64,000 nucleotides of DNA, from assembly GCA_003221655.1 (NCBI GenBank), contig QHSV01000236.1, forward strand, positions 1,041 through 65,040. Reading direction: 5' to 3'. The position numbers were made by a program, and so were the translations under genes. Each line of letters begins with the position of its first letter. The stretch's first letter is position 1. The notes beneath the pieces are model-generated. The model did not search any database, had not been told where the DNA came from, and saw only the letters and a program-made list of their open reading frames with translations. Positions 50,970 to 61,897 of the stretch are shown here, piece after piece. The stretch is from Candidatus Rokuibacteriota bacterium. Its GTDB lineage: Bacteria > Methylomirabilota > Methylomirabilia > Rokubacteriales > CSP1-6.

Positions 50970-52403
50970 ATGCGCCGGACCAAGATCGTTTGCACGATCG
51001 GTCCCTCGAGCCGCAGCATCGCCGAGCTCGATCGCTTGGTCGGAGCTGGCCTGGACGTCGCCCGCCTCAACTTTTCGCATGGCACGCACGACGAGCATGC
51101 GGAGGTTCTCCGGCGGCTCCGTGAGGGCGAGGCGCGATGGGGCCGCCCGGTCGCCATCCTTCAGGACTTGCAGGGGCCGAAGATCAGACTGGGAACGTTT
51201 GGCCCGGGTGGGGGCGCCCGCGTCGACCTCGAGCCGGGCCGGACGTTCACCCTCTACGCCCGTCCGGTCGAGGGCACCGCGGAGCGGGCCTCGCTCACCC
51301 ATCCGGAGTATTTGAAAGACCTGCGGTCCGGCGACGAGATCTGGATGGACGACGGGATGATCCAGCTCCGCGTCGAAGCGGTGTCGCCGGACGACGTGCG
51401 GTGCCGCGTGGTCGTCGGCGGACGCATCAGCGATCACAAAGGGCTCTCGCTGCCGCGGATCACGCTGCCGGTGTCCTGCCTGACGCCGAAGGACCGCGAC
51501 GACCTGCGCTTCGGTCTCCGCCAGGGGGTGGACTTCGTCGCGGTCTCGTTCGTCCGGTCGGCCGAGGACATCGAAGAGGTGCGGAGCTTTCTGCGGGCCG
51601 AGGCCGCCGGGGACCTGCCGATCGTCGCGAAGCTCGAGCGTCACGAGATCCTCGGCAATCTCCCGGGCATCTTGAACAAGGTGGACGCGGTCATGGTCGC
51701 GCGCGGCGACCTCGGCGTCGACGTGCCGATCGAGGACGTGCCCCATATCCAGAAGGAGATCATTCGCCAGGCGCGCGACGCGAAGGTCCCGGTGATCGTC
51801 GCGACCCAGATGCTGGAGTCGATGGTCACGCATCTGCGGCCCACGCGTGCCGAGGTCTCGGACGTCTCGACGGCGATCTTCGACGGCGCCGACGCGATCA
51901 TGCTGTCCGCCGAGACCGCCACCGGGCGGTATCCCGGCGAGGCGGTCTCCGTCATGGCGCGGATCGCCGAGCGCGCCGACGGCGCGATGCTGGCCGTTGA
52001 ACGGGAGCGGCGGCGGCGGCCGGGCGGGAGCTTCCAGGAGGCCATCTCCGACGCGGCGGCGACGGCCGCGCACATGCTCGGCGCGCGCGCCATCGTGGCG
52101 TTCACCGAGTCGGGCTTCTCGGCCCGCCTCATCTCGCAGGCCCGGCCGGGCGTGCCGATCATTGCGCTGACGCCGTTCGTCGAGGTGCAGCGGCGGCTGG
52201 CGCTTTCGTGGGGCGTCTCCTCCCGTCTCATCCGAAAGGTCGAGTCGACCGACGAGATGATCGAGGAGGTCGAAGCGACGCTGCTGAGCAACGGCTCGGT
52301 GCGCCCCAACGACGTGATCGTCATCATCTCCGGATCGCCCATGTGGGTCCGGGGAACGACCAATCTATTGAAGCTCCACCGGGTGGGCGAGCGCCGCGCG
52401 TGA
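50970..52403 (+). CDS. pyk: Pyruvate kinase.
   Basis: 477 aa. MRRTKIVCTIGP N-terminus and conserved PK core (MVARGDLGVDVP). Confidence 0.93.
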   Translation: MRRTKIVCTIGPSSRSIAELDRLVGAGLDVARLNFSHGTHDEHAEVLRRLREGEARWGRPVAILQDLQGPKIRLGTFGPGGGARVDLEPGRTFTLYARPVEGTAERASLTHPEYLKDLRSGDEIWMDDGMIQLRVEAVSPDDVRCRVVVGGRISDHKGLSLPRITLPVSCLTPKDRDDLRFGLRQGVDFVAVSFVRSAEDIEEVRSFLRAEAAGDLPIVAKLERHEILGNLPGILNKVDAVMVARGDLGVDVPIEDVPHIQKEIIRQARDAKVPVIVATQMLESMVTHLRPTRAEVSDVSTAIFDGADAIMLSAETATGRYPGEAVSVMARIAERADGAMLAVERERRRRPGGSFQEAISDAAATAAHMLGARAIVAFTESGFSARLISQARPGVPIIALTPFVEVQRRLALSWGVSSRLIRKVESTDEMIEEVEATLLSNGSVRPNDVIVIISGSPMWVRGTTNLLKLHRVGERRA

Positions 52404-55400
52404 GGGTCGCGCTCGGGCGCCCGGCCGTCCGCCGCGTGGTCCCGGTGCTGATCGGCCTCGTCGTGCTCTGGTTCGTCGCGGGCATCTTCCTGGCGCGTGC
52501 GCTCGCCGCGCGACACGACACCGCCGCCACCGCCACGCTCGCGTCCGTTCGAACGATCGTCGCGGCGGCGCTCGAGGAGGTGCGTCGCGAAGCGTCGCTC
52601 CTGGCCCAGGATCCGGCCGTCGTGGAGGGTGCGACTCGGAGCGACTGGGCCGCCCTCGTGCGCGGCGCGTGGCCGCGGATTCTGGCGCTGACGCAGGAGC
52701 GCCGCGCCGACCTGCTGCTGATCGTGGACGCGAGCGGCGCTCCGCTCGTCCAGGTGCCGGCCGCACGGCACATCGTCGCGGCGGCGGTCGCTCGACCTCC
52801 CGAGGTCGTCGCGCGCCTTGCCGTCATCGACGAGCGGCCCTACGTGCTCGGGATCGCGCCGATGCCCGCCGGTCTGGTGATCGTCGGGCGGCGCTTCGAG
52901 TCGCTCGCCGGAGCGGTCGCGCGCCTGCCATCGCGCCCTGCGCTCGTGGTGGTGGTGGGCGATCGAGCCCTCGGCTCCACGTTGCCCGGCGCGCCCCCGC
53001 TCGGCTGGGACACCGCGGTGCGGACCGGGCAGATCACGATCAGCGGGGAGCTCTGGTTCGCACGTCAGCTCGGCGAGGCGGGCGGCGGTCTCTGGGCGCT
53101 CGTCCCGGCGCGGGAGCAGCGCCGGGAGAGCAGCCAGCTCTGGTTCTGGTGGGCGGTTTCGCTGTCGGCGGCCGGCGCCACCGCCGTTGGGATCGCCGCG
53201 GTTTCTGTATCGCCCCCGGCCGGACGCGAGGCGTCCGCGGCCGGACGCGAGGCGTCCGACAACCGCCGGAGTCGGGAGCTCGAAGCGCTGCACGCGGTCG
53301 TGGTGGCGACCGGCAGCGGCGACGATCTGGCCCTCACCGCCGAGCGGACGCTCGAGGTCGTGTGCGGCCTCGCGGGGATCCCCTTCGGAGGCGTGTTCCG
53401 GTTCGACCGGGCGACCCAGACGCTCGTCCTCACCGCCCACCGTGGTCTCCTGCCCGACGACGTCGAGCGCTTGCGTGTCCGCTCGCTCGACCAGAGCCAC
53501 GTCGGCGAAGTGATCCGCAGCGGCCGGCCGGTGGTGACCGATCTCACGGCCTCCCGTGTGCTGGCGCCCGACGTCGTCGAGCGCGTGCAGGCCGGCGGCT
53601 ACCGAACGCAGCTCGGGCTGCCGATTCCGGTGAACGGCGAGACATGGGGCGTCATGGCTCTCATCACGCGAGAGGCTCGGACCTTCGATGCTGATGAGCT
53701 GACGCTGCTCCAGGCGGTCGCGCACCAGGTGGGACAGGCGGTGGCGCGCGCCGCGCTCCTGGCCGAGGGCCGGGAGAAGAGTCGTCGCCTCGAGACACTC
53801 GCGCGTCTGGCGCAGACGCTGACCGCCACGCTGTCGCTCGACGAGGTGTTCCGCCGCGTGGTCGATGCGGCGGTCGAGCTGTTCGGGTCCAGCACTGCGC
53901 AGCTCTGGCTCGTGGACGACGACGACCGCCACGTCTCGCTGCGGGCGGCCGCGGGGATCCAGTCGTCGGAAGGCGTCGAGCGCCAGCGCGTCGGCGAAGG
54001 ACTCGTCGGGATGGTCGTCGCGACCCGCGAGCCGCTGACGGCGGTCGACGCGCTTCGGGACCCGCGGGCGCGCAACGTCGAGCGGGTCCGCGCCGAAGGC
54101 GTGGTCAGCGTCGGAATCGTGCCACTTCAGCTGGGCGAACGGGTGCTGGGGGTTCTGGCCATCGGCGTACGGGCCCGGCACGAATACACCGCCGAGGAGC
54201 TGCGGCTCCTCGGTTTCCTCGCCTCGCACGCGGCGAACGCGATCAACAACGCCCAGCTCTATCGCGAATCGACCCGGCAAGCGCAGCGCATGAGCGCGCT
54301 GACCGACCTGGTGCGTCTGGTGTCCGAGACCCTCGACTTCGACCCCGCCGCGCAACGCGTCGCCGACAGCGTGTGCTCGTTGCTCGGGGCCCGGGCCTCG
54401 TGCCTCTACCGGGTCGACCCGGCCTCCGACGCTCTCGTCGCGTTCGCGACTTCGAGGGACGCCGATCAGCTCTTCCAGTGGCAGCCGGTGCTGCCGCGCG
54501 GCACCGGGATCGCCGGGCTCGCCGTCAGCCAGCGCTGTTCGGTCGCTTCGGCCGACGTGCTGGCCGATTCTCGCATCACGTACACCGACGACACACGTGC
54601 CCGTGTCGCGCAAGAGGCGCACCGCTCCCTGCTCGCCGTTCCGCTGCTGGTGCAAGGACGGATGTTTGGCGCGCTCGCCGTCAGTGATCGCGTCGGACGT
54701 GTCTTCGATGAGTCCGAGATCCGTCTCGCGCAGGCTTTCGCCGACCAGGCCGCACTGGCGCTGGAGAACGCGCGGCTCTACACGGAGGCGACGCGCCGCC
54801 GGCTCGAAGCGGAAGAGCTGGCCCGGCTGGCGCGGACGCTGACCGAGAGCCTCGATCCGCGGGCGGTCGGTGACCAGATCGCCGAGAGCGTGCTCGTGCT
54901 CTTCCGGGTGAGATCGTCCGTGCTGCGACTGCTGCAGCCCGACGGGTCGCTGGTGACCCTGGCGCGCGGGGGTCATCTTCGCGATGCCTCGCCGCTCGGG
55001 ACCGTGCTGCCCGCGGGCGTCGGGGCGTCCGGGCGAGCGGCCGTCGAGGGCCGAGCCGTGACGTCGCCCGACGTCTTCAATGACCCGTCGATCGTTCTGA
55101 GCGACGAGGTCGCGGAGACGATGCGGCGCGAAGGCGAGGGCGCGCTGCTCGCCGTGCCGCTCCGGGCGAAAGGGCGGATCATCGGCACGCTGTCGCTGGG
55201 AGACGCCTCGGGCCGGGTCTTTTCGGAGGCGGAGGTCGGGCTGCTCCAGGCCTTCGGCGACCAGGCGGCGCTCGCGCTCGAGAACGCGCACCTCTTCTCG
55301 CTCGAGACGGCCCGTCGGGGGCAGATCACAGCCCTCGCCGAGGCCGAGCGCGAGTTCGCCCGCGAGCTCGACCCCGACCGTCTTCTCACGCTGGTCGTCG

Positions 55401-57466
55401 AACGCGCCACCCGGCTCTTCGATGCCCACGGCGTCATCTACCTCGTGGACGCGGACGGCGGGCTGGCGCCGCGCGCCTGGACGCGGGACGGCGGGTTCGA
55501 GGACCTGGCGATCGCCTTCGGGCACGGCGTGGTCGGCGCCTGCGCCGAGCAGCGCCGCGGACTCATCGTCAACGATTACGCGGCGTCGCGCTTCGCCCTG
55601 CGCAAGTGGGTCGATATGGGCGTGCGCCGCGCGATGGCGTTCCCGCTCAGCGTGCAGGAACGGCTGCTCGGCGTCATCGCGATGAATCGAACCAGCCCCG
55701 CCGCCGCGCCATTTCTCGACGAGGACCTGGCGGTTCTGGAGAGCTTCGCCGCCCGCGCGGCCATCGCCCTCGAGAACGCGCGACTCTACGCGCAGAACCG
55801 GCGGCAGGTCGAGGAGCTCTCGGTGCTCTACGAGCTATCGCGGGCGGTCACCGGCCAGCTCGATCGCGCCACGCTGCTCGAGGCCATCCGGGCCCAGGTG
55901 GCCCGCATCCTCGACGCCGCCAACATGGCCATCGTGCTCCTCGACGACGAGCGGCGGGATCTCGAGGTGGTGCTCCGTACCGTGAACGGTGCGCGCGACA
56001 TGCGGACGCCCCTCCGATACCCGAGCCACGCCGTGGGACTGATGTCGGTCGTGCTCGTGACGGGCGAGGCGGTCCTGACGGAGGACTACATCGCCGAGTG
56101 TTCGCGTCGCGGCGTCGAGCCCGTGGCGACCTTCGCACACCCGCGACACTGGCTCGGCGTCCCGATGAAGGCCGGAGACACGGTGATCGGCGTTCTGACG
56201 TTGCGGAGCGCGGAGCGGGCGTTCACCGAAGCCGACGAGCGGCTGTTGACGAACATCGCCGATCTCGCCGCGCTGTCACTGCGCAACGCGCGCCTCTTCG
56301 AGGAGCGCACCCGCGCGTATGGCGAGCTGGCCGCGGCGCAGGATCAGCTCGTGCGCACGGAGAAGCTCCGCGCGCTCGGCGAGATGGCCTCGGGGGTGGC
56401 GCACGACTTCAACAACCTGCTCGCGTCGATCCTGGGACGGGCCCAGCTCACGCTCCAGCGAATTCAAGATCCGCAGCTTCGCAAGTGGATCCAGGTCATC
56501 GAGCGCGCCGCCCTGGACGGCGCGCAGACCGTCCGCCGGCTGCAGGAGTTTACGCGGATCCGCCGCGATCAGCAGCGTTTCGTCGAGGTCGACCTCAACG
56601 ACGTCGTGCGCGGCGCGCTCGAGATCACCCAGTCGCGCTGGCGGGAGGAGACGCGCAGCCGGGGCGTCGCGGTCGACGTGCAGACCTCGTTCGCGAGCCT
56701 GCCGCCGGTGGCGGGCGATCCCGCCGAGCTGCGCGAGGCGATGACCAATCTCATCCTGAACGCGGTGGACGCCATGCCGACGGGTGGCACCCTGACGCTG
56801 ACCACGGCCGTCGAGAACAACGAGGTCGTGGTGACGGTGGCCGACTCCGGCGTCGGCATCCCGGATGGCATCCGGGGCAAGATCTTCGACCCGTTCTTCA
56901 CCACGAAGGGACCGCAGGGCACCGGGCTCGGGCTCTCGATGACGTACGGGATCCTCTCCCGTCACGGCGGGCGCATCACGGTCGAGAGCCACGTCGGGCG
57001 CGGCACCGCGTTCCGCCTGACCTTCACACCTGGCGAAGCCCCCGACCTGGACGGGCTGGCCCCGGCACCCGAGCCCACCCCGCTTGGCGTCTCGCTGCGG
57101 TGCCTGGTCGTCGACGACGAAGAAGAGGTCGGTACGGTGCTCGGCGATGTCCTGACGACGGAAGGCCATCGGGTCGTGGTGCTCACCGACGGAGGCGAGG
57201 CGATCGCGCGATTCCGCGCGGAGCCCTTCGACCTGGTATTCACCGACCTGGCGATGCCGCGGGTCTCGGGCTGGCAGGTGGCGCAGTCGGTCAAGGAGAT
57301 CGCGCCTGCGGTGCCGGTCGTCCTCGTCACCGGCTTCGGCGTCGAGCTGTCAGCGGAGGAGCGCCAGATCCACGGCGTCGACCTGGTGGTGGTGAAGCCG
57401 TTGAAGATCAAAGACGTCCTGGACGTCGTTGCGCGCGTGGCCCGCCGGCGCGCTCGGCAGACCTGA
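52400..57466 (+). CDS. Hybrid sensor histidine kinase (~1688 aa). Two TM segments flank a ~280-aa extracytoplasmic domain. These are followed by about six to seven GAF domains, HisKA, HATPase_c and a C-terminal receiver domain.
   Basis: GTG overlaps the pyk stop (GTGA). Repeated GAF-like blocks. H-box EKLRALGEMASGVAHDFNNLL. G-box GTGLGLSM. Receiver LVVDDEEEV...FDLVFTDLAMP. The upstream extension of ORF 52208..57466 is rejected. Confidence 0.8.
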   Translation: MRVALGRPAVRRVVPVLIGLVVLWFVAGIFLARALAARHDTAATATLASVRTIVAAALEEVRREASLLAQDPAVVEGATRSDWAALVRGAWPRILALTQERRADLLLIVDASGAPLVQVPAARHIVAAAVARPPEVVARLAVIDERPYVLGIAPMPAGLVIVGRRFESLAGAVARLPSRPALVVVVGDRALGSTLPGAPPLGWDTAVRTGQITISGELWFARQLGEAGGGLWALVPAREQRRESSQLWFWWAVSLSAAGATAVGIAAVSVSPPAGREASAAGREASDNRRSRELEALHAVVVATGSGDDLALTAERTLEVVCGLAGIPFGGVFRFDRATQTLVLTAHRGLLPDDVERLRVRSLDQSHVGEVIRSGRPVVTDLTASRVLAPDVVERVQAGGYRTQLGLPIPVNGETWGVMALITREARTFDADELTLLQAVAHQVGQAVARAALLAEGREKSRRLETLARLAQTLTATLSLDEVFRRVVDAAVELFGSSTAQLWLVDDDDRHVSLRAAAGIQSSEGVERQRVGEGLVGMVVATREPLTAVDALRDPRARNVERVRAEGVVSVGIVPLQLGERVLGVLAIGVRARHEYTAEELRLLGFLASHAANAINNAQLYRESTRQAQRMSALTDLVRLVSETLDFDPAAQRVADSVCSLLGARASCLYRVDPASDALVAFATSRDADQLFQWQPVLPRGTGIAGLAVSQRCSVASADVLADSRITYTDDTRARVAQEAHRSLLAVPLLVQGRMFGALAVSDRVGRVFDESEIRLAQAFADQAALALENARLYTEATRRRLEAEELARLARTLTESLDPRAVGDQIAESVLVLFRVRSSVLRLLQPDGSLVTLARGGHLRDASPLGTVLPAGVGASGRAAVEGRAVTSPDVFNDPSIVLSDEVAETMRREGEGALLAVPLRAKGRIIGTLSLGDASGRVFSEAEVGLLQAFGDQAALALENAHLFSLETARRGQITALAEAEREFARELDPDRLLTLVVERATRLFDAHGVIYLVDADGGLAPRAWTRDGGFEDLAIAFGHGVVGACAEQRRGLIVNDYAASRFALRKWVDMGVRRAMAFPLSVQERLLGVIAMNRTSPAAAPFLDEDLAVLESFAARAAIALENARLYAQNRRQVEELSVLYELSRAVTGQLDRATLLEAIRAQVARILDAANMAIVLLDDERRDLEVVLRTVNGARDMRTPLRYPSHAVGLMSVVLVTGEAVLTEDYIAECSRRGVEPVATFAHPRHWLGVPMKAGDTVIGVLTLRSAERAFTEADERLLTNIADLAALSLRNARLFEERTRAYGELAAAQDQLVRTEKLRALGEMASGVAHDFNNLLASILGRAQLTLQRIQDPQLRKWIQVIERAALDGAQTVRRLQEFTRIRRDQQRFVEVDLNDVVRGALEITQSRWREETRSRGVAVDVQTSFASLPPVAGDPAELREAMTNLILNAVDAMPTGGTLTLTTAVENNEVVVTVADSGVGIPDGIRGKIFDPFFTTKGPQGTGLGLSMTYGILSRHGGRITVESHVGRGTAFRLTFTPGEAPDLDGLAPAPEPTPLGVSLRCLVVDDEEEVGTVLGDVLTTEGHRVVVLTDGGEAIARFRAEPFDLVFTDLAMPRVSGWQVAQSVKEIAPAVPVVLVTGFGVELSAEERQIHGVDLVVVKPLKIKDVLDVVARVARRRARQT

Positions 57467-58274: not shown

Positions 58275-58297
58275 CGCTGATGCGCGCAGGAGGGGCT

Positions 58298-58558
58298 ATG
58301 CTGAACCCGACGGCCTTCGCCAACTCGCTCGCGATTCTCTCGGGCGGCTTCTACATCCTTTTCTATGTCTTGGCGGTCGTGTGGCGAGACGCGTTCCGGT
58401 TCCTGTTCAACGCGCAGTTCTTCGGAGCCGACGTCGCCGCGCTCTTGCCCCAGCAGTTGACCTATGGCGGATTCGTCGGGACCTTCGTCGTCCTGATCGT
58501 GTTCGCGTGGCTCGCCGCCTTTGGCTGGGCGTGGCTCTACAATCGGCTTGCCGCCTGA
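58298..58558 (+). CDS. Small membrane protein (86 aa, two TM segments), function unknown.
   Basis: ATG preceded by AGGAGGGG. Hydrophobic sequence ILSGGFYILFYVLAVV...FVVLIVFAWLAAFGWAWLY. Confidence 0.5.
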   Translation: MLNPTAFANSLAILSGGFYILFYVLAVVWRDAFRFLFNAQFFGADVAALLPQQLTYGGFVGTFVVLIVFAWLAAFGWAWLYNRLAA

Positions 58559-58621
58559 GGGTGTCGACGCACCCGTGGCCCTCGGGTACAATCTTGATCG
58601 CGATTCCGCGAGGAGACCCAC

Positions 58622-59401
58622 ATGACTAGTCAGGAAGCGGCTCGAGGTTCCGGAACGGTGGTCAAGCTCTTCTACCGGCCGGGTTGATCGTCCTGCGCCA
58701 AGACGAAGGAGCTCCTCTCGTCTTGGGGGGTCGAGTTCGACCCGGTCGACGTGCAGGCGAACCCGGCCGGCTACGCCGAGCTGGCGCGGCTGGGGATAGG
58801 CCGCGTGCCGGCGGTGACCGTCGGCGACCGCGCCGCGCACGGGTGGAACCCACCGGCATACGCCGCGCTGCTCGGCATCCCGTACTCGGCGGACATCAAG
58901 CTTGCCCCGACCGAGCTGGCCAAGCGGCTCGACATCATCCTCGATGCGACGCAGGGGCTCATTCGCGGCGTGCCGGATCAACACATGGACTGGCGGCCGC
59001 CGGAGCGCGATCGGACCCTGCGTAACCTCGGCTATCATGTGTTCCGGCTCTCGCTGGCATTCGTGGACGGTATGGACCTCGGCGAGTTCCCGGCGTCCTG
59101 GCTGCTGGACCAGGCGCCCGCCGATCTTCGCGACGGGCCGGCCATCGCGCGCTATGGCGCCCTCGTGCGCGGACGCATCACCGGGTGGTTCGAGGGGGCA
59201 TCGCCCCGCGAGTTCGAGCGCGTGATCAAGGTCTACTATGGCCCCCAGTCGGGCCACGCCCTGCTCGAGCGCACGACGTGGCACGCCGCGCAGCACCTGC
59301 GCCAGCTCTACGCCCTGGCCGAGCGCCTTGCGATCACGCCGCCGGGACCGATGCCGACCGACGCGTTCGTGGGACTGCCCCTTCCCGACGCTCTCTGGTG
59401 A
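58622..59401 (+). CDS. Candidate selenoprotein: glutaredoxin-like thioredoxin-fold domain (U-S-S-C, UGA at 58685-58687) fused to a DinB_2/YfiT-like metal-binding four-helix-bundle domain.
   Basis: ATG 58622 with GAGGAG 7 nt upstream. One frame reads VVKLFYRPG-TGA-SSCAKTKELLSSWGVEFDPVDVQANPAGYAELARLGIGRVPAVTVGDRAAHGWN.... The frame continues through DinB-like His motifs (QHMDW, GYHVF, TWHAAQHLRQL) to the stop at 59399-59401. 259 aa including Sec. Confidence 0.6.
58698..58726 (+). other. SECIS-like mRNA hairpin 10 nt downstream of the UGA of the Grx-DinB gene.
   Basis: Perfect 9-bp stem CCAAGACGA/UCGUCUUGG enclosing the loop AGGAGCUCCUC (contains GG). Its spacing from the UGA matches bacterial SECIS geometry. 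Confidence 0.5.
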
Positions 59402-60168
59402 CGAGGGTCGACTACGACCGGACTCTCTGGCGCGCGTATCGCGCCGGTCGTGCTCTCTCCAAGGACACCGGCCGGCTCTGGATGGACGCGATCGCCCGCT
59501 ACCTCGGTGGCACGCGCTCAGGCCTGACCGTCCTCGATCTCGGGGCCGGCACGGGGCGCTTCGCGATCCTGCTGGCCGATGCGTTCGACGCCCGCGTCGT
59601 CGCCGTCGAGCCGTCGGAGAAGATGCGCGTGGAGGCGGAGCGCTACAGCGCACACCCGCGAGTGGACCACCGCGCCGGCGCCGCGGAGACGATCCCCGCC
59701 GCCGACACCGAGTTCGATTTCGCGTTCCTGTCGATGATCATCCATCACGTCGGGGACGTCGCCGCCTGCGCGGGTGAGCTCCACCGGGTGGTCAAGCCCG
59801 GCGGGCTCGTGTTCATCCGCAACGTCTTCAGCGGGCGCCTGGACGGTGTGCCGCACTACGCGTTCTTCCCGTCGGCCCGCGCCGTCGACGAGGCGCGCCT
59901 GCCGACGCTCGAGGCAGTGCGGCAGGCCTTCGTCGCGCAGGGATTCGAGCTCACGGCCCTCGATACGCTGGTGCAGGAGATCGACCCGAGCCTCACGGCC
60001 CACTACGAGCGAATCAAGCGGCGAGCGCTGTCGACGTTCGAGTTGATCACCGACGCCGAGTTCGACGAAGGCCTCACCCGGATGCGCCACGCCGCCGCCC
60101 GCGAGACCGCGCCGACTCCAGTCCTCGAAGCCATCGACCTGCTCGTCCTCCGCCGCCGAACGACCTGA
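59398..60168 (+). CDS. Class I SAM-dependent methyltransferase (Methyltransf_11/25-like).
   Basis: GTG overlaps the upstream stop (GTGA). VLDLGAGTGRF SAM-binding motif. 256 aa. Confidence 0.75.
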   Translation: MTRVDYDRTLWRAYRAGRALSKDTGRLWMDAIARYLGGTRSGLTVLDLGAGTGRFAILLADAFDARVVAVEPSEKMRVEAERYSAHPRVDHRAGAAETIPAADTEFDFAFLSMIIHHVGDVAACAGELHRVVKPGGLVFIRNVFSGRLDGVPHYAFFPSARAVDEARLPTLEAVRQAFVAQGFELTALDTLVQEIDPSLTAHYERIKRRALSTFELITDAEFDEGLTRMRHAAARETAPTPVLEAIDLLVLRRRTT

Positions 60169-60171
60169 CCG

Positions 60172-61107
60172 CTAGTCGTCTTCAGCCCAGGCCGTCGTGA
60201 GCCGACGAGCGAGGGCGCGGTGGCCCCTGATGAAGTAGGCGAGCATGGCGCCGGTCGCGAGGAGGTTGCCGACGAAGATGGTCCACCCCGCCAGCTCGTC
60301 CAGGACCCACTTCGCCGCGATCAACACACCGCCGACGAAAAACACCTCGAACGCCGTGAAGAAGATCACCAGGGCGAAGACGAAGAGCGGCTGGCGCTCG
60401 GCGCCCGCGATCAGCGCGGCGCCGACAATTCCGAACAACGCGAACGCGATCCCGTGCACGACCGTATAAGAGATGATCGCGGCCCCGGGATCGGGTTGAC
60501 GAAGGATCGCGGCGCCCAAGAGCCGCGGTGTCCGCAGCGGCTCGCCCTGAATCCAGTCGATCGCCAGGAACCAGAGCGCGACGGCGGCGGCGCCGAGCAG
60601 GCCGGCCACGACGCCCTCGCGGAACACGCTGCCCCAGGAGCCGATCAGCGTGCGCGACAGGACGCGGTGGGCGCGGAAGAAGTACCAGAGCATCGCGAGG
60701 GAGGCGAGGAGGTTGCCGCCGAGGATCGCCCACCAGACCAGGGCGCCCAGCATCGACTTCCCGAGCGCCCCGACGATGCCGAAGACGAACACCTCGAAGC
60801 TGGCGAAGAGGATCACGAAGGCGACAAACAGCGTGGGCTCGCGCTCGCTGACGGCCATGAGGCTCGCGGCGACGACGCCGAACGCGATGAACGCCAGGCC
60901 GTGGATGATCGTGTAGCCGAGGACGTTGCCCACGGTGGGCCGAAGTCCAATCGGGTTGGTCACGCCCTGGAAGACCGCGGCGCCCAGGAGCCCCGGGGTC
61001 AGGAACGGCTGGCCGCGCCAGATGTCGAAGAGGAGGAACCAGACGGCGACGACAGCCGCGCCGATCAAGCCGGCCACGACCCCTTCCTTCAGGATCGACC
61101 GCTGCAC
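60172..61107 (-). CDS. Integral membrane protein with an internal tandem duplication (two ~150-aa homologous halves), function unknown.
   Basis: 311 aa. Both halves share EGVVAGLIGAA..WFL.FD...G.P..TP.LLGAA......HG.AF..FG.V.A.L.A..ER.P..F...VIFF..FEVF..G......L..W.I..GNLLA..AML.YF.R.HR.L.R.L. Confidence 0.55.
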   Translation of the reverse strand: MQRSILKEGVVAGLIGAAVVAVWFLLFDIWRGQPFLTPGLLGAAVFQGVTNPIGLRPTVGNVLGYTIIHGLAFIAFGVVAASLMAVSEREPTLFVAFVILFASFEVFVFGIVGALGKSMLGALVWWAILGGNLLASLAMLWYFFRAHRVLSRTLIGSWGSVFREGVVAGLLGAAAVALWFLAIDWIQGEPLRTPRLLGAAILRQPDPGAAIISYTVVHGIAFALFGIVGAALIAGAERQPLFVFALVIFFTAFEVFFVGGVLIAAKWVLDELAGWTIFVGNLLATGAMLAYFIRGHRALARRLTTAWAEDD

Positions 61108-61252: not shown

Positions 61253-61897
61253 TCACTCGTCGCGGGCGAATCTGACGCCGTAGTCGGAGTAACGAAGGTG
61301 CGGCGGCAGAGACGAGCGATGGGCGACCGGGCTCCACGGGTCTGCGTGACGCCACGCGCCGCCGCGACTCACGCGCCGCGTGCCGGTTACCGGGCCGCGC
61401 GGATTCCGGTCAGGCGAGCGGCGGTAATAGTCCTCGGCGAACCAGTCGCCGCACCATTCATGGCAGACGCCGGAGAGATCGGTGAGCCCCAGCGTGTTGC
61501 CCGGCGTCTCGCCGACGCGGGGCGGACGGTCGAACGTGACGCCAGGCTTCGCGTCGTCGCCCCACGGGTAGCGCCGACCGTCGAGGCCGCCGCGCGCGGC
61601 CTTTTCCCACTCGGCCTCCGTCGGCAGCCGCGCGCCCGACCACTCGGCGAACGCGCCGGCGTCGGTCCACGAGAGACCGACGACGGGCTGGCGCGGGTCG
61701 GCGAACGCCGGATTGGACCAGAACGGCGGCGATGAGGCGCCGGTGGCCGCCATGTACGCGGCGAAGTCTCCGTTCGTCGCGGGTGTGCGCGCGATGAGGA
61801 AAGTGTCGACCCAGACGACATGGGCCGGGCCCTCGGACGGGTGACCGTGAGCCCAGCCCATGCTGAACGGCCCCGCTGGAACGCGCGCGAAGTCCAC
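61253..61897 (-). CDS. FGE-sulfatase domain protein (formylglycine-generating-enzyme / EgtB C-terminal-domain family), stand-alone 214 aa.
   Basis: GTG start. Motifs FSMGW, RTPATNGDF, GLTDLSGVCHEWCGDWF and RGGAW are characteristic of the FGE-sulfatase fold. Confidence 0.7.
   Translation of the reverse strand: MDFARVPAGPFSMGWAHGHPSEGPAHVVWVDTFLIARTPATNGDFAAYMAATGASSPPFWSNPAFADPRQPVVGLSWTDAGAFAEWSGARLPTEAEWEKAARGGLDGRRYPWGDDAKPGVTFDRPPRVGETPGNTLGLTDLSGVCHEWCGDWFAEDYYRRSPDRNPRGPVTGTRRVSRGGAWRHADPWSPVAHRSSLPPHLRYSDYGVRFARDE

Follow-up and report, generated by a model that had tools for sequence, protein, structure and literature searches.

The question raised by this locus is whether a stop codon near the start of a gene is read as a stop at all. 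The locus lies in a stretch of 64,000 nucleotides from contig QHSV01000236.1 of the Candidatus Rokuibacteriota assembly GCA_003221655.1, which we refer to as the window and whose numbering we use throughout (Table 1). A reading frame that begins with the ATG at 58622 and ends at 59401 is interrupted only once, by a TGA at 58685-58687, in the peptide context LFYRPG-U-SSC-AKTKELL, where U stands for the predicted selenocysteine (Sec). The mechanical list of open reading frames (ORFs) contains only the downstream part of this gene, 58751-59401, starting from a GTG at 58751. It had been predicted from the letters of the sequence that the list splits a gene whose frame is otherwise continuous, and that the gene starts at the ATG behind a GAGGAG ribosome-binding site; our translation agrees with the former, and both the GAGGAG and the ATG could be read in place.

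Our best explanation is that the gene very probably encodes a selenoprotein of 259 residues, in which the UGA would be decoded by means of a selenocysteine insertion sequence (SECIS) element, and in which a glutaredoxin (Grx) domain is fused to a DinB bundle bearing a triad of histidines. Judging from the comparative data, we have high confidence in the recoding itself, that is, that the UGA at 58685-58687 would be read as Sec, and low to moderate confidence in the specific chemistry that we propose for the enzyme.

The internal TGA in related loci

Our protein search returned 1933 homologs, and a scan with one genome per species yielded 80 loci. Most of the loci belong to Rokubacteria/Methylomirabilota, and the remainder carry the labels Binatia, Acidobacteriota, SAR324, Thermodesulfobacteriota, and Deferrimicrobiaceae. 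At the codon aligned with the internal TGA, 79 of the 80 loci have TGA and one (L052) has TGC, while TAA and TAG do not occur. The terminal stop codon of the same gene is variable (TGA 41, TAG 29, TAA 8). The tblastn alignments cross the TGA in 78 loci, and when the DNA is translated through the stop, the frame and the peptide YYRPG-*-SSCAKTKELLSSWG are kept in every readable locus. The UGA is therefore conserved together with coding conservation on both of its sides, YYRPG on the 5' side and SSCAKTKELL on the 3' side. The second cysteine of the motif, Cys25, is invariant in all loci and in 51 of 51 full-length members of the family.

The codon usage at this site can be compared with homologs that have an ordinary cysteine there. 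One of them, P0065, is a full-length protein of 258 residues with a C-S-S-C motif and is 65% identical to the protein in the window. An exhaustive, profile-free search with P0065 gave 396 clusters at 50% identity (E<=1e-10), and among the best 150 of these 396 clusters, 49 are full length with a C-x-x-C motif (28 CSSC and 17 CTSC), and another 56 are truncated at the N-terminus but have a complete DinB domain. We looked at the DNA of three remote N-truncated representatives (L081, L082, and L083) and found a TGA at the position of the first cysteine in all three, in the contexts FWQPA-U-TSC, YWQPG-U-TSC, and YYRQG-U-FTC. The first position of the motif is a cysteine in 100% of the 51 full-length family members. 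Given that the remote truncated members have the TGA and the full-length homologs have cysteine, the Sec/Cys pair is a property of the whole family. The placement of U at the first cysteine of a CxxC motif, as the original prediction had it, is thus confirmed by alignment with the cysteine of P0065, of L052, and of the 49 diverse full-length representatives. A residue other than Cys or Sec at this position in homologs would have spoken against recoding, and only cysteine or TGA was found.

Both L052 and P0065 retain the SECIS-like hairpin sequence described below, or the peptide that it encodes, which suggests that these cysteine forms are recent Sec-to-Cys reversions. In the metagenome-assembled genome (MAG) DATKEI01, the cysteine form L052 (TGC) is found beside a paralog that is a Sec form (L077), and a second MAG, JBKPAK01, also has two paralogs (L028 and L079). 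In another locus, a truncated extra copy (L055:4742) precedes the intact gene (L055:9210) at a distance of about 4.5 kb. The copy covers the first ~20 codons, with the TGA and the 5' half of the SECIS hairpin among them, and then diverges; it is probably what remains of a duplication, or else an artefact of assembly. In P0214, a protein of 721 residues, the Grx-DinB module is found at residues 468-715, and so there is a further fusion at its N-terminus.

The hairpin after the TGA and the use of selenocysteine

The TGA is followed, at a distance of ten nucleotides, by a perfect 9-bp stem, in which 58698-58706 (CCAAGACGA) pairs with 58718-58726 (UCGUCUUGG) beneath the cap AGGAGCUCCUC. RNAfold adds three pairs to this stem, around a 4-nt loop. 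The apical loop (A-G-C-U-C, 58710-58714) begins at a distance of 22 nt from the UGA and has the consensus A-G-Y-U-S across loci, with the A and the U invariant and the G present in at least 90% of the sequences. The 29-nt hairpin has a minimum free energy (MFE) of -16.2 kcal/mol in the window, and its values over 77 loci lie between -20.4 and -9.4 kcal/mol. A published model of the bacterial SECIS (bSECIS) element has a loop of 3-9 nt, a stem of 4-16 bp, a distance of 16-37 nt from the UGA to the loop, a G in the first two loop positions, and an MFE of -7.5 kcal/mol or lower (PMC13188914). Every one of these constraints holds here, with a loop of 4-5 nt, a G in second place, 12 pairs, a distance of 22 nt, and an MFE of -9.4 kcal/mol or lower in the 77 loci.

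For the analysis of covariation, we aligned 60 nt from the UGA onward in 78 sequences. In the SECIS-type hairpin, 89% of the cells can pair, a proportion that falls to 50% or less if the 3' partners are shifted along the alignment. Compensatory pairs occur at columns 22-34 (AU 43, CG 11) and at columns 23-33 (AU 21, GC 17), with GU/AU alternation at 24-32, and the covariation score was reached by none of 500 shuffles. In the protein, the compensatory changes of the stem appear as coupled K-to-R and S-to-A substitutions. The codons of the stem are almost frozen at synonymous sites: in the 13 codons that follow U, the pairwise synonymous difference is 0.30, while in 205 other segments of equal size in the gene the minimum is 0.312 and the median 0.438. 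The comparative data thus place the hairpin beyond chance, and we take it to be a predicted bacterial SECIS element, in agreement with the geometry originally proposed for it.

Directly after this hairpin, the MFE fold has a second, shorter hairpin. Here 86% of the cells pair, there are compensatory changes at columns 46-57 (GC 36, AU 12) and 45-58, and the stem alternates between GUC/GAC and AUC/GAU, with weaker conservation in distant members. This hairpin may assist recoding or cause the ribosome to pause.

Several results weigh against decoding of the UGA as Sec by a SECIS element. When folded as a single sequence, the 61-nt region has an energy of -28.7 kcal/mol (z=-2.15), and 5 of 200 shuffles were equal or better; this is only modestly unusual, so the real test of the hairpin is the comparative one. 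The K-E-[FL]-L conservation after the UGA also occurs in cysteine forms, and for this reason conservation in that region is partly a constraint at the level of the protein. At the gathering thresholds of Rfam, the window had no match. With ARAGORN, no tRNA, and hence no tRNA-Sec, was detected in the window, and 60 loci gave only one tRNA-Ser. Searches of the window and 80 loci with tblastn, using approximate E. coli queries, gave no match to selA, selB, or selD. The negative result for tRNA-Sec and the sel genes, in the window and 1.3 Mb of related loci, carries little weight because these regions are small fractions of their genomes and the query sequences are approximate. As regards the function of the protein, no conserved neighbour outside the syntenic block of the Rokubacteria gives a hint; the distant Sec-containing loci have no neighbouring gene in common, and only the gene itself recurs.

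A scan of the window for coding frames interrupted by TGA led to a second selenoprotein gene, predicted to encode a membrane-anchored, Prx-like AhpC/TSA protein with the active site FYRGYW-U-PFC. In 30 metagenomic relatives of this gene, the aligned codon is TGA in 29 and TGC in one, and the UGA is followed by an invariant 9-bp stem (AGCUCCAAG/CUUGGAGCU), with the only variable base in a G-rich loop ~25 nt from the UGA. In one MAG of the Methylomirabilota, 63 selenoprotein genes have been predicted (PMC13188914), and Sec-type group 4 hydrogenases have been reported in the phylum (PMC13582414). The second gene in the window and this literature on the phylum give indirect support for Sec decoding in the organism. 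The scan also returned four further places in the window where a TGA joins two stretches of the same frame (3257+, 50964+, 40857-, and 11760-), which we rejected as candidates because by context they are ordinary gene boundaries.

A related possibility is that the UGA is recoded, but not as Sec or not always as Sec, either with cysteine being inserted via a SelB-dependent tRNA(ReC)/selC*-type tRNA or through near-cognate read-through. Systems of the selC*/tRNA(ReC) type have been mentioned as putting cysteine at UGA codons in Sec-utilising lineages (PMC13582414). However, the mechanism is rare and still requires the Sec machinery, and the Prx-like gene in the window, which is of a classical selenoprotein type, shows the same pattern as the gene studied here. 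The site has kept TGA over TGC by 79 to 1, which indicates that something other than cysteine is selected there, and we consider this possibility very improbable.

Given these results, we keep to selenocysteine as the residue encoded by the UGA. Since the predicted SECIS element is invariant and covarying, it could serve as a probe or as a covariance model for finding genes and for studying SelB recognition in an uncultured phylum that is rich in selenoproteins.

A glutaredoxin domain fused to a DinB/YfiT bundle

We searched Pfam with U read as C, and two domains scored above their gathering cut-offs, a Grx/NrdH-like domain at the N-terminus and a DinB_2/YfiT-type domain at the C-terminus (Table 1). 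These are the two parts that had been proposed for the protein, and a predicted fold is in agreement with them. The structure was modelled with AlphaFold2 for the cysteine homolog P0065 and not for the window protein itself, and the model (mean pLDDT 86.6, pTM 0.77) shows four long helices behind a beta-alpha-beta domain of the thioredoxin fold. The U22-S-S-C25 motif precedes the helix 22-33 of this model. In Foldseek, the N-terminal part of P0065 matches NrdH and Grx structures (TMt 0.82-0.86), and the C-terminal part matches YjoA (3dka), YfiT (1rxq), DR0053 (6iz2), mycothiol S-transferase (8f5v), and MDMPI (2nsf). The matches to the DinB fold have a probability of 1.0, with TMt of 0.66-0.86 to 3dka, 1rxq, 6iz2, and 8f5v. 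No solved chain that holds both the Grx and the DinB parts was found in the Foldseek search. A profile search against the sequences of the PDB gave only Grx and NrdH proteins and one DinB-like protein, with weak E-values.

The residues that are conserved in the 51 diverse full-length members fall in both domains. C22/U22, C25, and P63 (the cis-Pro position) are each conserved in 100%, H139 in 96%, H221 in 98%, and H225 in 100%; E216, R217, R227, Q228, and a C-terminal GLPxP tail are conserved besides. In the P0065 model, the three histidines are on helices 2 and 4 of the bundle. The original prediction had pointed to His-containing helices, and this is correct insofar as H139, H221, and H225 are conserved, but H121, the histidine of the QHMDW segment named there, is not conserved among the 51 members. 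In BstA/YfiT, the metal ligands are H67, H160, and H164 (PMC5815605), and in the bacillithiol transferases BstA-H, which all depend on a metal, no residues are invariant except three metal-binding histidines (PMC5815605, PMC10950700). The H...HxxxH pattern of H139, H221, and H225 corresponds to H67/H160/H164 of BstA/YfiT, and the three residues are a putative metal-binding triad. The joint conservation of the U/C-x-x-C motif and the His triad suggests that the protein works as a single integrated enzyme, in redox or thiol-transfer chemistry.

We propose the following mechanism. During translation, the UGA would be read as Sec, with the hairpin in the mRNA recruiting SelB that carries Sec-tRNA(Sec). 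The Grx/NrdH-like domain and the DinB/YfiT bundle would then form one catalytic unit, in which the DinB-type metal site may bind or activate the substrate (a thiol, or an electrophilic or oxidised compound), much as the S-transferases for bacillithiol and mycothiol do. The substrate would be attacked by the U22 selenolate, a selenenylsulfide with C25 would result, and cellular thiol reductants would re-reduce the U22-C25 selenenylsulfide. An enzyme that works in this way would be a selenium-dependent thiol-transferase or reductase.

Selenocysteine-containing glutaredoxins (PF00462, UxxC) are among the characterised prokaryotic selenoproteins, for which work on Clostridium oremlandii has been cited (PMC13188914). 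The window protein is like them in having the Grx thioredoxin fold, Sec as the first residue of a U-x-x-C motif, and a SECIS hairpin within the coding region just after the UGA. In contrast to the known ones, which are small, single-domain proteins, it has an additional DinB/YfiT domain of ~160 residues with a His triad. No NCBIfam model reaches its cut-off with this protein; the best Grx matches are of the YruB and NrdH types, and the protein is nearer to these while being far below every Grx cut-off. The UXX-star and HUGP/GUXX-star families of NCBIfam are also Grx-like selenoproteins with weak domain similarity to it (E 5e-7 to 3e-4), but UXX-star-type models score only 20-30 bits against cut-offs of 66-325 bits, and judging by their names, the Sec of these families is three residues from the C-terminus, whereas here it is residue 22 of 259.

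On the DinB/YfiT side, the closest known proteins are BstA/YfiT, MST, and the mycothiol-dependent maleylpyruvate isomerase, with which the window protein shares the four-helix-bundle fold and the H...HxxxH triad that holds the catalytic metal in those enzymes. The identity is only 15-20%, and the known thiol transferases of this fold are stand-alone proteins that use a diffusible low-molecular-weight thiol, unlike the window protein, where the U-x-x-C module is covalently attached. The glutathione S-transferases (GSTs) also have a thioredoxin-fold thiol module followed by a helical module, and there are weak whole-chain Foldseek matches to them (probability 0.7-0.95), but the TM-scores are ~0.3 and the helical folds are unrelated, so the likeness is one of analogy and not of homology.

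A different function would follow if the protein were half of a split EgtB/SenA-like sulfoxide/selenoxide synthase, with the stand-alone FGE-sulfatase-domain protein encoded at 61253-61897 as its partner. EgtB combines DinB_2 and FGE in one chain, and EgtB and SenA have a DinB_2 domain with a three-His metal site, as predicted here. The neighbouring protein resembles the C-terminal halves of EgtB (91 bits) and SenA (88 bits) at scores below threshold. In 46 of 77 loci its gene is within 5 kb of the one for the Grx-DinB protein, and in some the two are directly adjacent. However, the cut-offs of the two models, 360 and 420 bits, are far above these scores, the genes converge and are not co-transcribed, and the Grx-DinB protein has no match to the EgtB or SenA models of NCBIfam and no FGE domain in its own chain, just as EgtB and SenA have no N-terminal Grx domain. 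The association is also restricted to a syntenic block of the Rokubacteria, while the loci L058-L080 keep the Grx-DinB gene without an FGE gene. Since the link is confined to this block and absent from the distant Sec loci, shared ancestry explains it, and we give the split synthase only a slim chance.

We therefore return to the fused Grx-DinB selenoprotein as an enzyme in its own right. No DinB/YfiT-type selenoprotein or Grx-DinB fusion is mentioned in the accessible portions of a 2026 review (PMC13188914), the Global Ocean Sampling (GOS) analysis, the deep-Sep paper, and the main text of BSepDB, or in what wider literature searches returned, although the protein may be listed elsewhere under a generic "Grx". 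Within those portions, the statement that no fusion of a Sec-Grx with a DinB domain has been described holds, and no NCBIfam model covers the fusion. The Sec-glutaredoxin class is established, and the fusion with a DinB domain appears to be the new part. The findings add a well-supported family to the bacterial selenoproteome and a first link of selenium to the DinB/YfiT thiol-transferase fold, and the fused layout of a UxxC motif and a His triad leads to testable hypotheses on how DinB-type transferases are coupled to redox recycling. More tentatively, and with slightly more doubt than confidence, we suggest that the gene represents an undescribed selenoenzyme family, the first selenium-dependent member of the DinB/YfiT thiol-transferases, with a layout convergent with that of the GSTs, and that the family is widespread in Rokubacteria/Methylomirabilota, occurs in at least five other lineages, and is systematically truncated in annotation.

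Annotation and surrounding genes

In public databases, the close relatives of the protein are nearly all 216-229 residues long and are called DinB family or hypothetical proteins. The names in use for the protein are "glutaredoxin" and "hypothetical protein", and N-truncated calls are named "DinB family protein". The called starts vary among relatives (216, 218, 229, and 234 residues), and given that close homologs of 216-229 residues have DinB_2 alone, we conclude that gene callers picked various start codons shortly after the TGA for them. There is an in-frame ATG 8-32 codons 5' of the TGA in 67 of 77 homologous loci. The codon corresponding to GTG 58751 is a GTG in only 33 of the 77 loci and is GTC, ATC, or another non-start codon in the remaining 44, and no internal start codon is conserved among the 77 loci. 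Based on these comparisons, the gene is mis-annotated in public databases, with the predicted active site missing from the called protein in essentially all of the genomes and metagenomes examined. This exposes a systematic error of annotation.

That the TGA is instead an ordinary stop, a pseudogene mutation, or a sequencing error, with a DinB-only product of ~216 residues made from GTG 58751 and the first 21 codons being leader or non-coding sequence, would fit the single ORF listed by gene callers and the short database proteins of close relatives, but it is extremely improbable, given a TGA that is shared by 79 independent assemblies and never replaced by TAA or TAG, in contrast to a freely variable terminal stop, a conserved upstream frame and YYRPG peptide, full-length cysteine homologs, called starts that differ among relatives, and a GTG that is not a start codon in most loci. 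Translation from that GTG would also interrupt the thioredoxin fold behind strand one and lose the redox motif.

The features of the selenoprotein gene and of its surroundings are collected in Table 1.

Table 1. Positions of the predicted selenoprotein gene, its parts, and other features of the window.
Feature	Coordinates	Strand	Remarks
Shine-Dalgarno-like GAGGAG	58610..58615	+	6 nt 5' of ATG; read off sequence
Full coding sequence of the predicted selenoprotein	58622..59401	+	259 codons including Sec22; start ATG 58622; translation
In-frame UGA, inferred selenocysteine codon U22	58685..58687	+	first position of U-S-S-C
Cys25 codon TGC	58694..58696	+	second (resolving) residue of U-x-x-C
Terminal stop TGA of the predicted selenoprotein	59399-59401	+
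Glutaredoxin/NrdH-like thioredoxin-fold domain	58661..58831	+	residues 14-70; PF00462 E=4.3e-11, 43.3 bits, cut-off 22.9
DinB_2/YfiT-type four-helix-bundle domain	58931..59308	+	residues 104-229; PF12867 E=4.9e-7, 30.7 bits, cut-off 24.8
His triad codons (putative metal ligands)	H139 59036-59038, H221 59282-59284, H225 59294-59296	+
SECIS-type hairpin	58698..58726	+	12-pair stem with internal mismatch or bulge
Second hairpin, 6-bp (GGGUCG/CGACCC)	58728..58743	+	directly 3' of SECIS hairpin; MFE fold
Membrane-anchored AhpC/TSA (Prx-like) selenoprotein (predicted)	45538 to 44804, TGA 45148-45146	-	Pfam E=7e-32, U read as C
Class I S-adenosylmethionine (SAM) methyltransferase	59398..60168	+	GTGA overlap 59398-59401; Methyltransf_11 E=1e-20
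Stand-alone FGE-sulfatase-domain protein	61253-61897	-	PF03781 E=1e-45
DUF5676 small protein with two transmembrane segments	58286-58558	+	PF18926 E=8e-10
Hydrophobic, internally repeated protein	60172-61107	-	311 residues
Long ORF	52208-57466	+	1752 residues

The locus is syntenic in Rokubacteria, with an enoyl-CoA hydratase gene upstream in 58 of 77 loci and, downstream in the same syntenic block, the convergent FGE-sulfatase gene in 46 of 77 and an aminotransferase gene in 43 of 77. A conserved operon was considered and rejected, since no neighbour recurs in the distant loci. Translational coupling to the SAM methyltransferase through a GTGA had been proposed; the overlap is there, but it is lineage-specific, with the methyltransferase found downstream in only 12 of 77 loci. 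On the same count, we rejected the methyltransferase as a functional partner.

Other genes around the locus are shared by some of its relatives. The DUF5676 protein is encoded directly upstream of the selenoprotein gene, in 7 of 77 loci only. The hydrophobic, internally repeated protein has no Pfam or NCBIfam match, and is located downstream in 32 of 77 loci. Further upstream is the ORF of 1752 residues, of which the C-terminal part lies upstream of the locus in 36 of 77 relatives. From its sequence, this ORF reads like many repeated sensor-like segments followed by a histidine-kinase and receiver module at the end.

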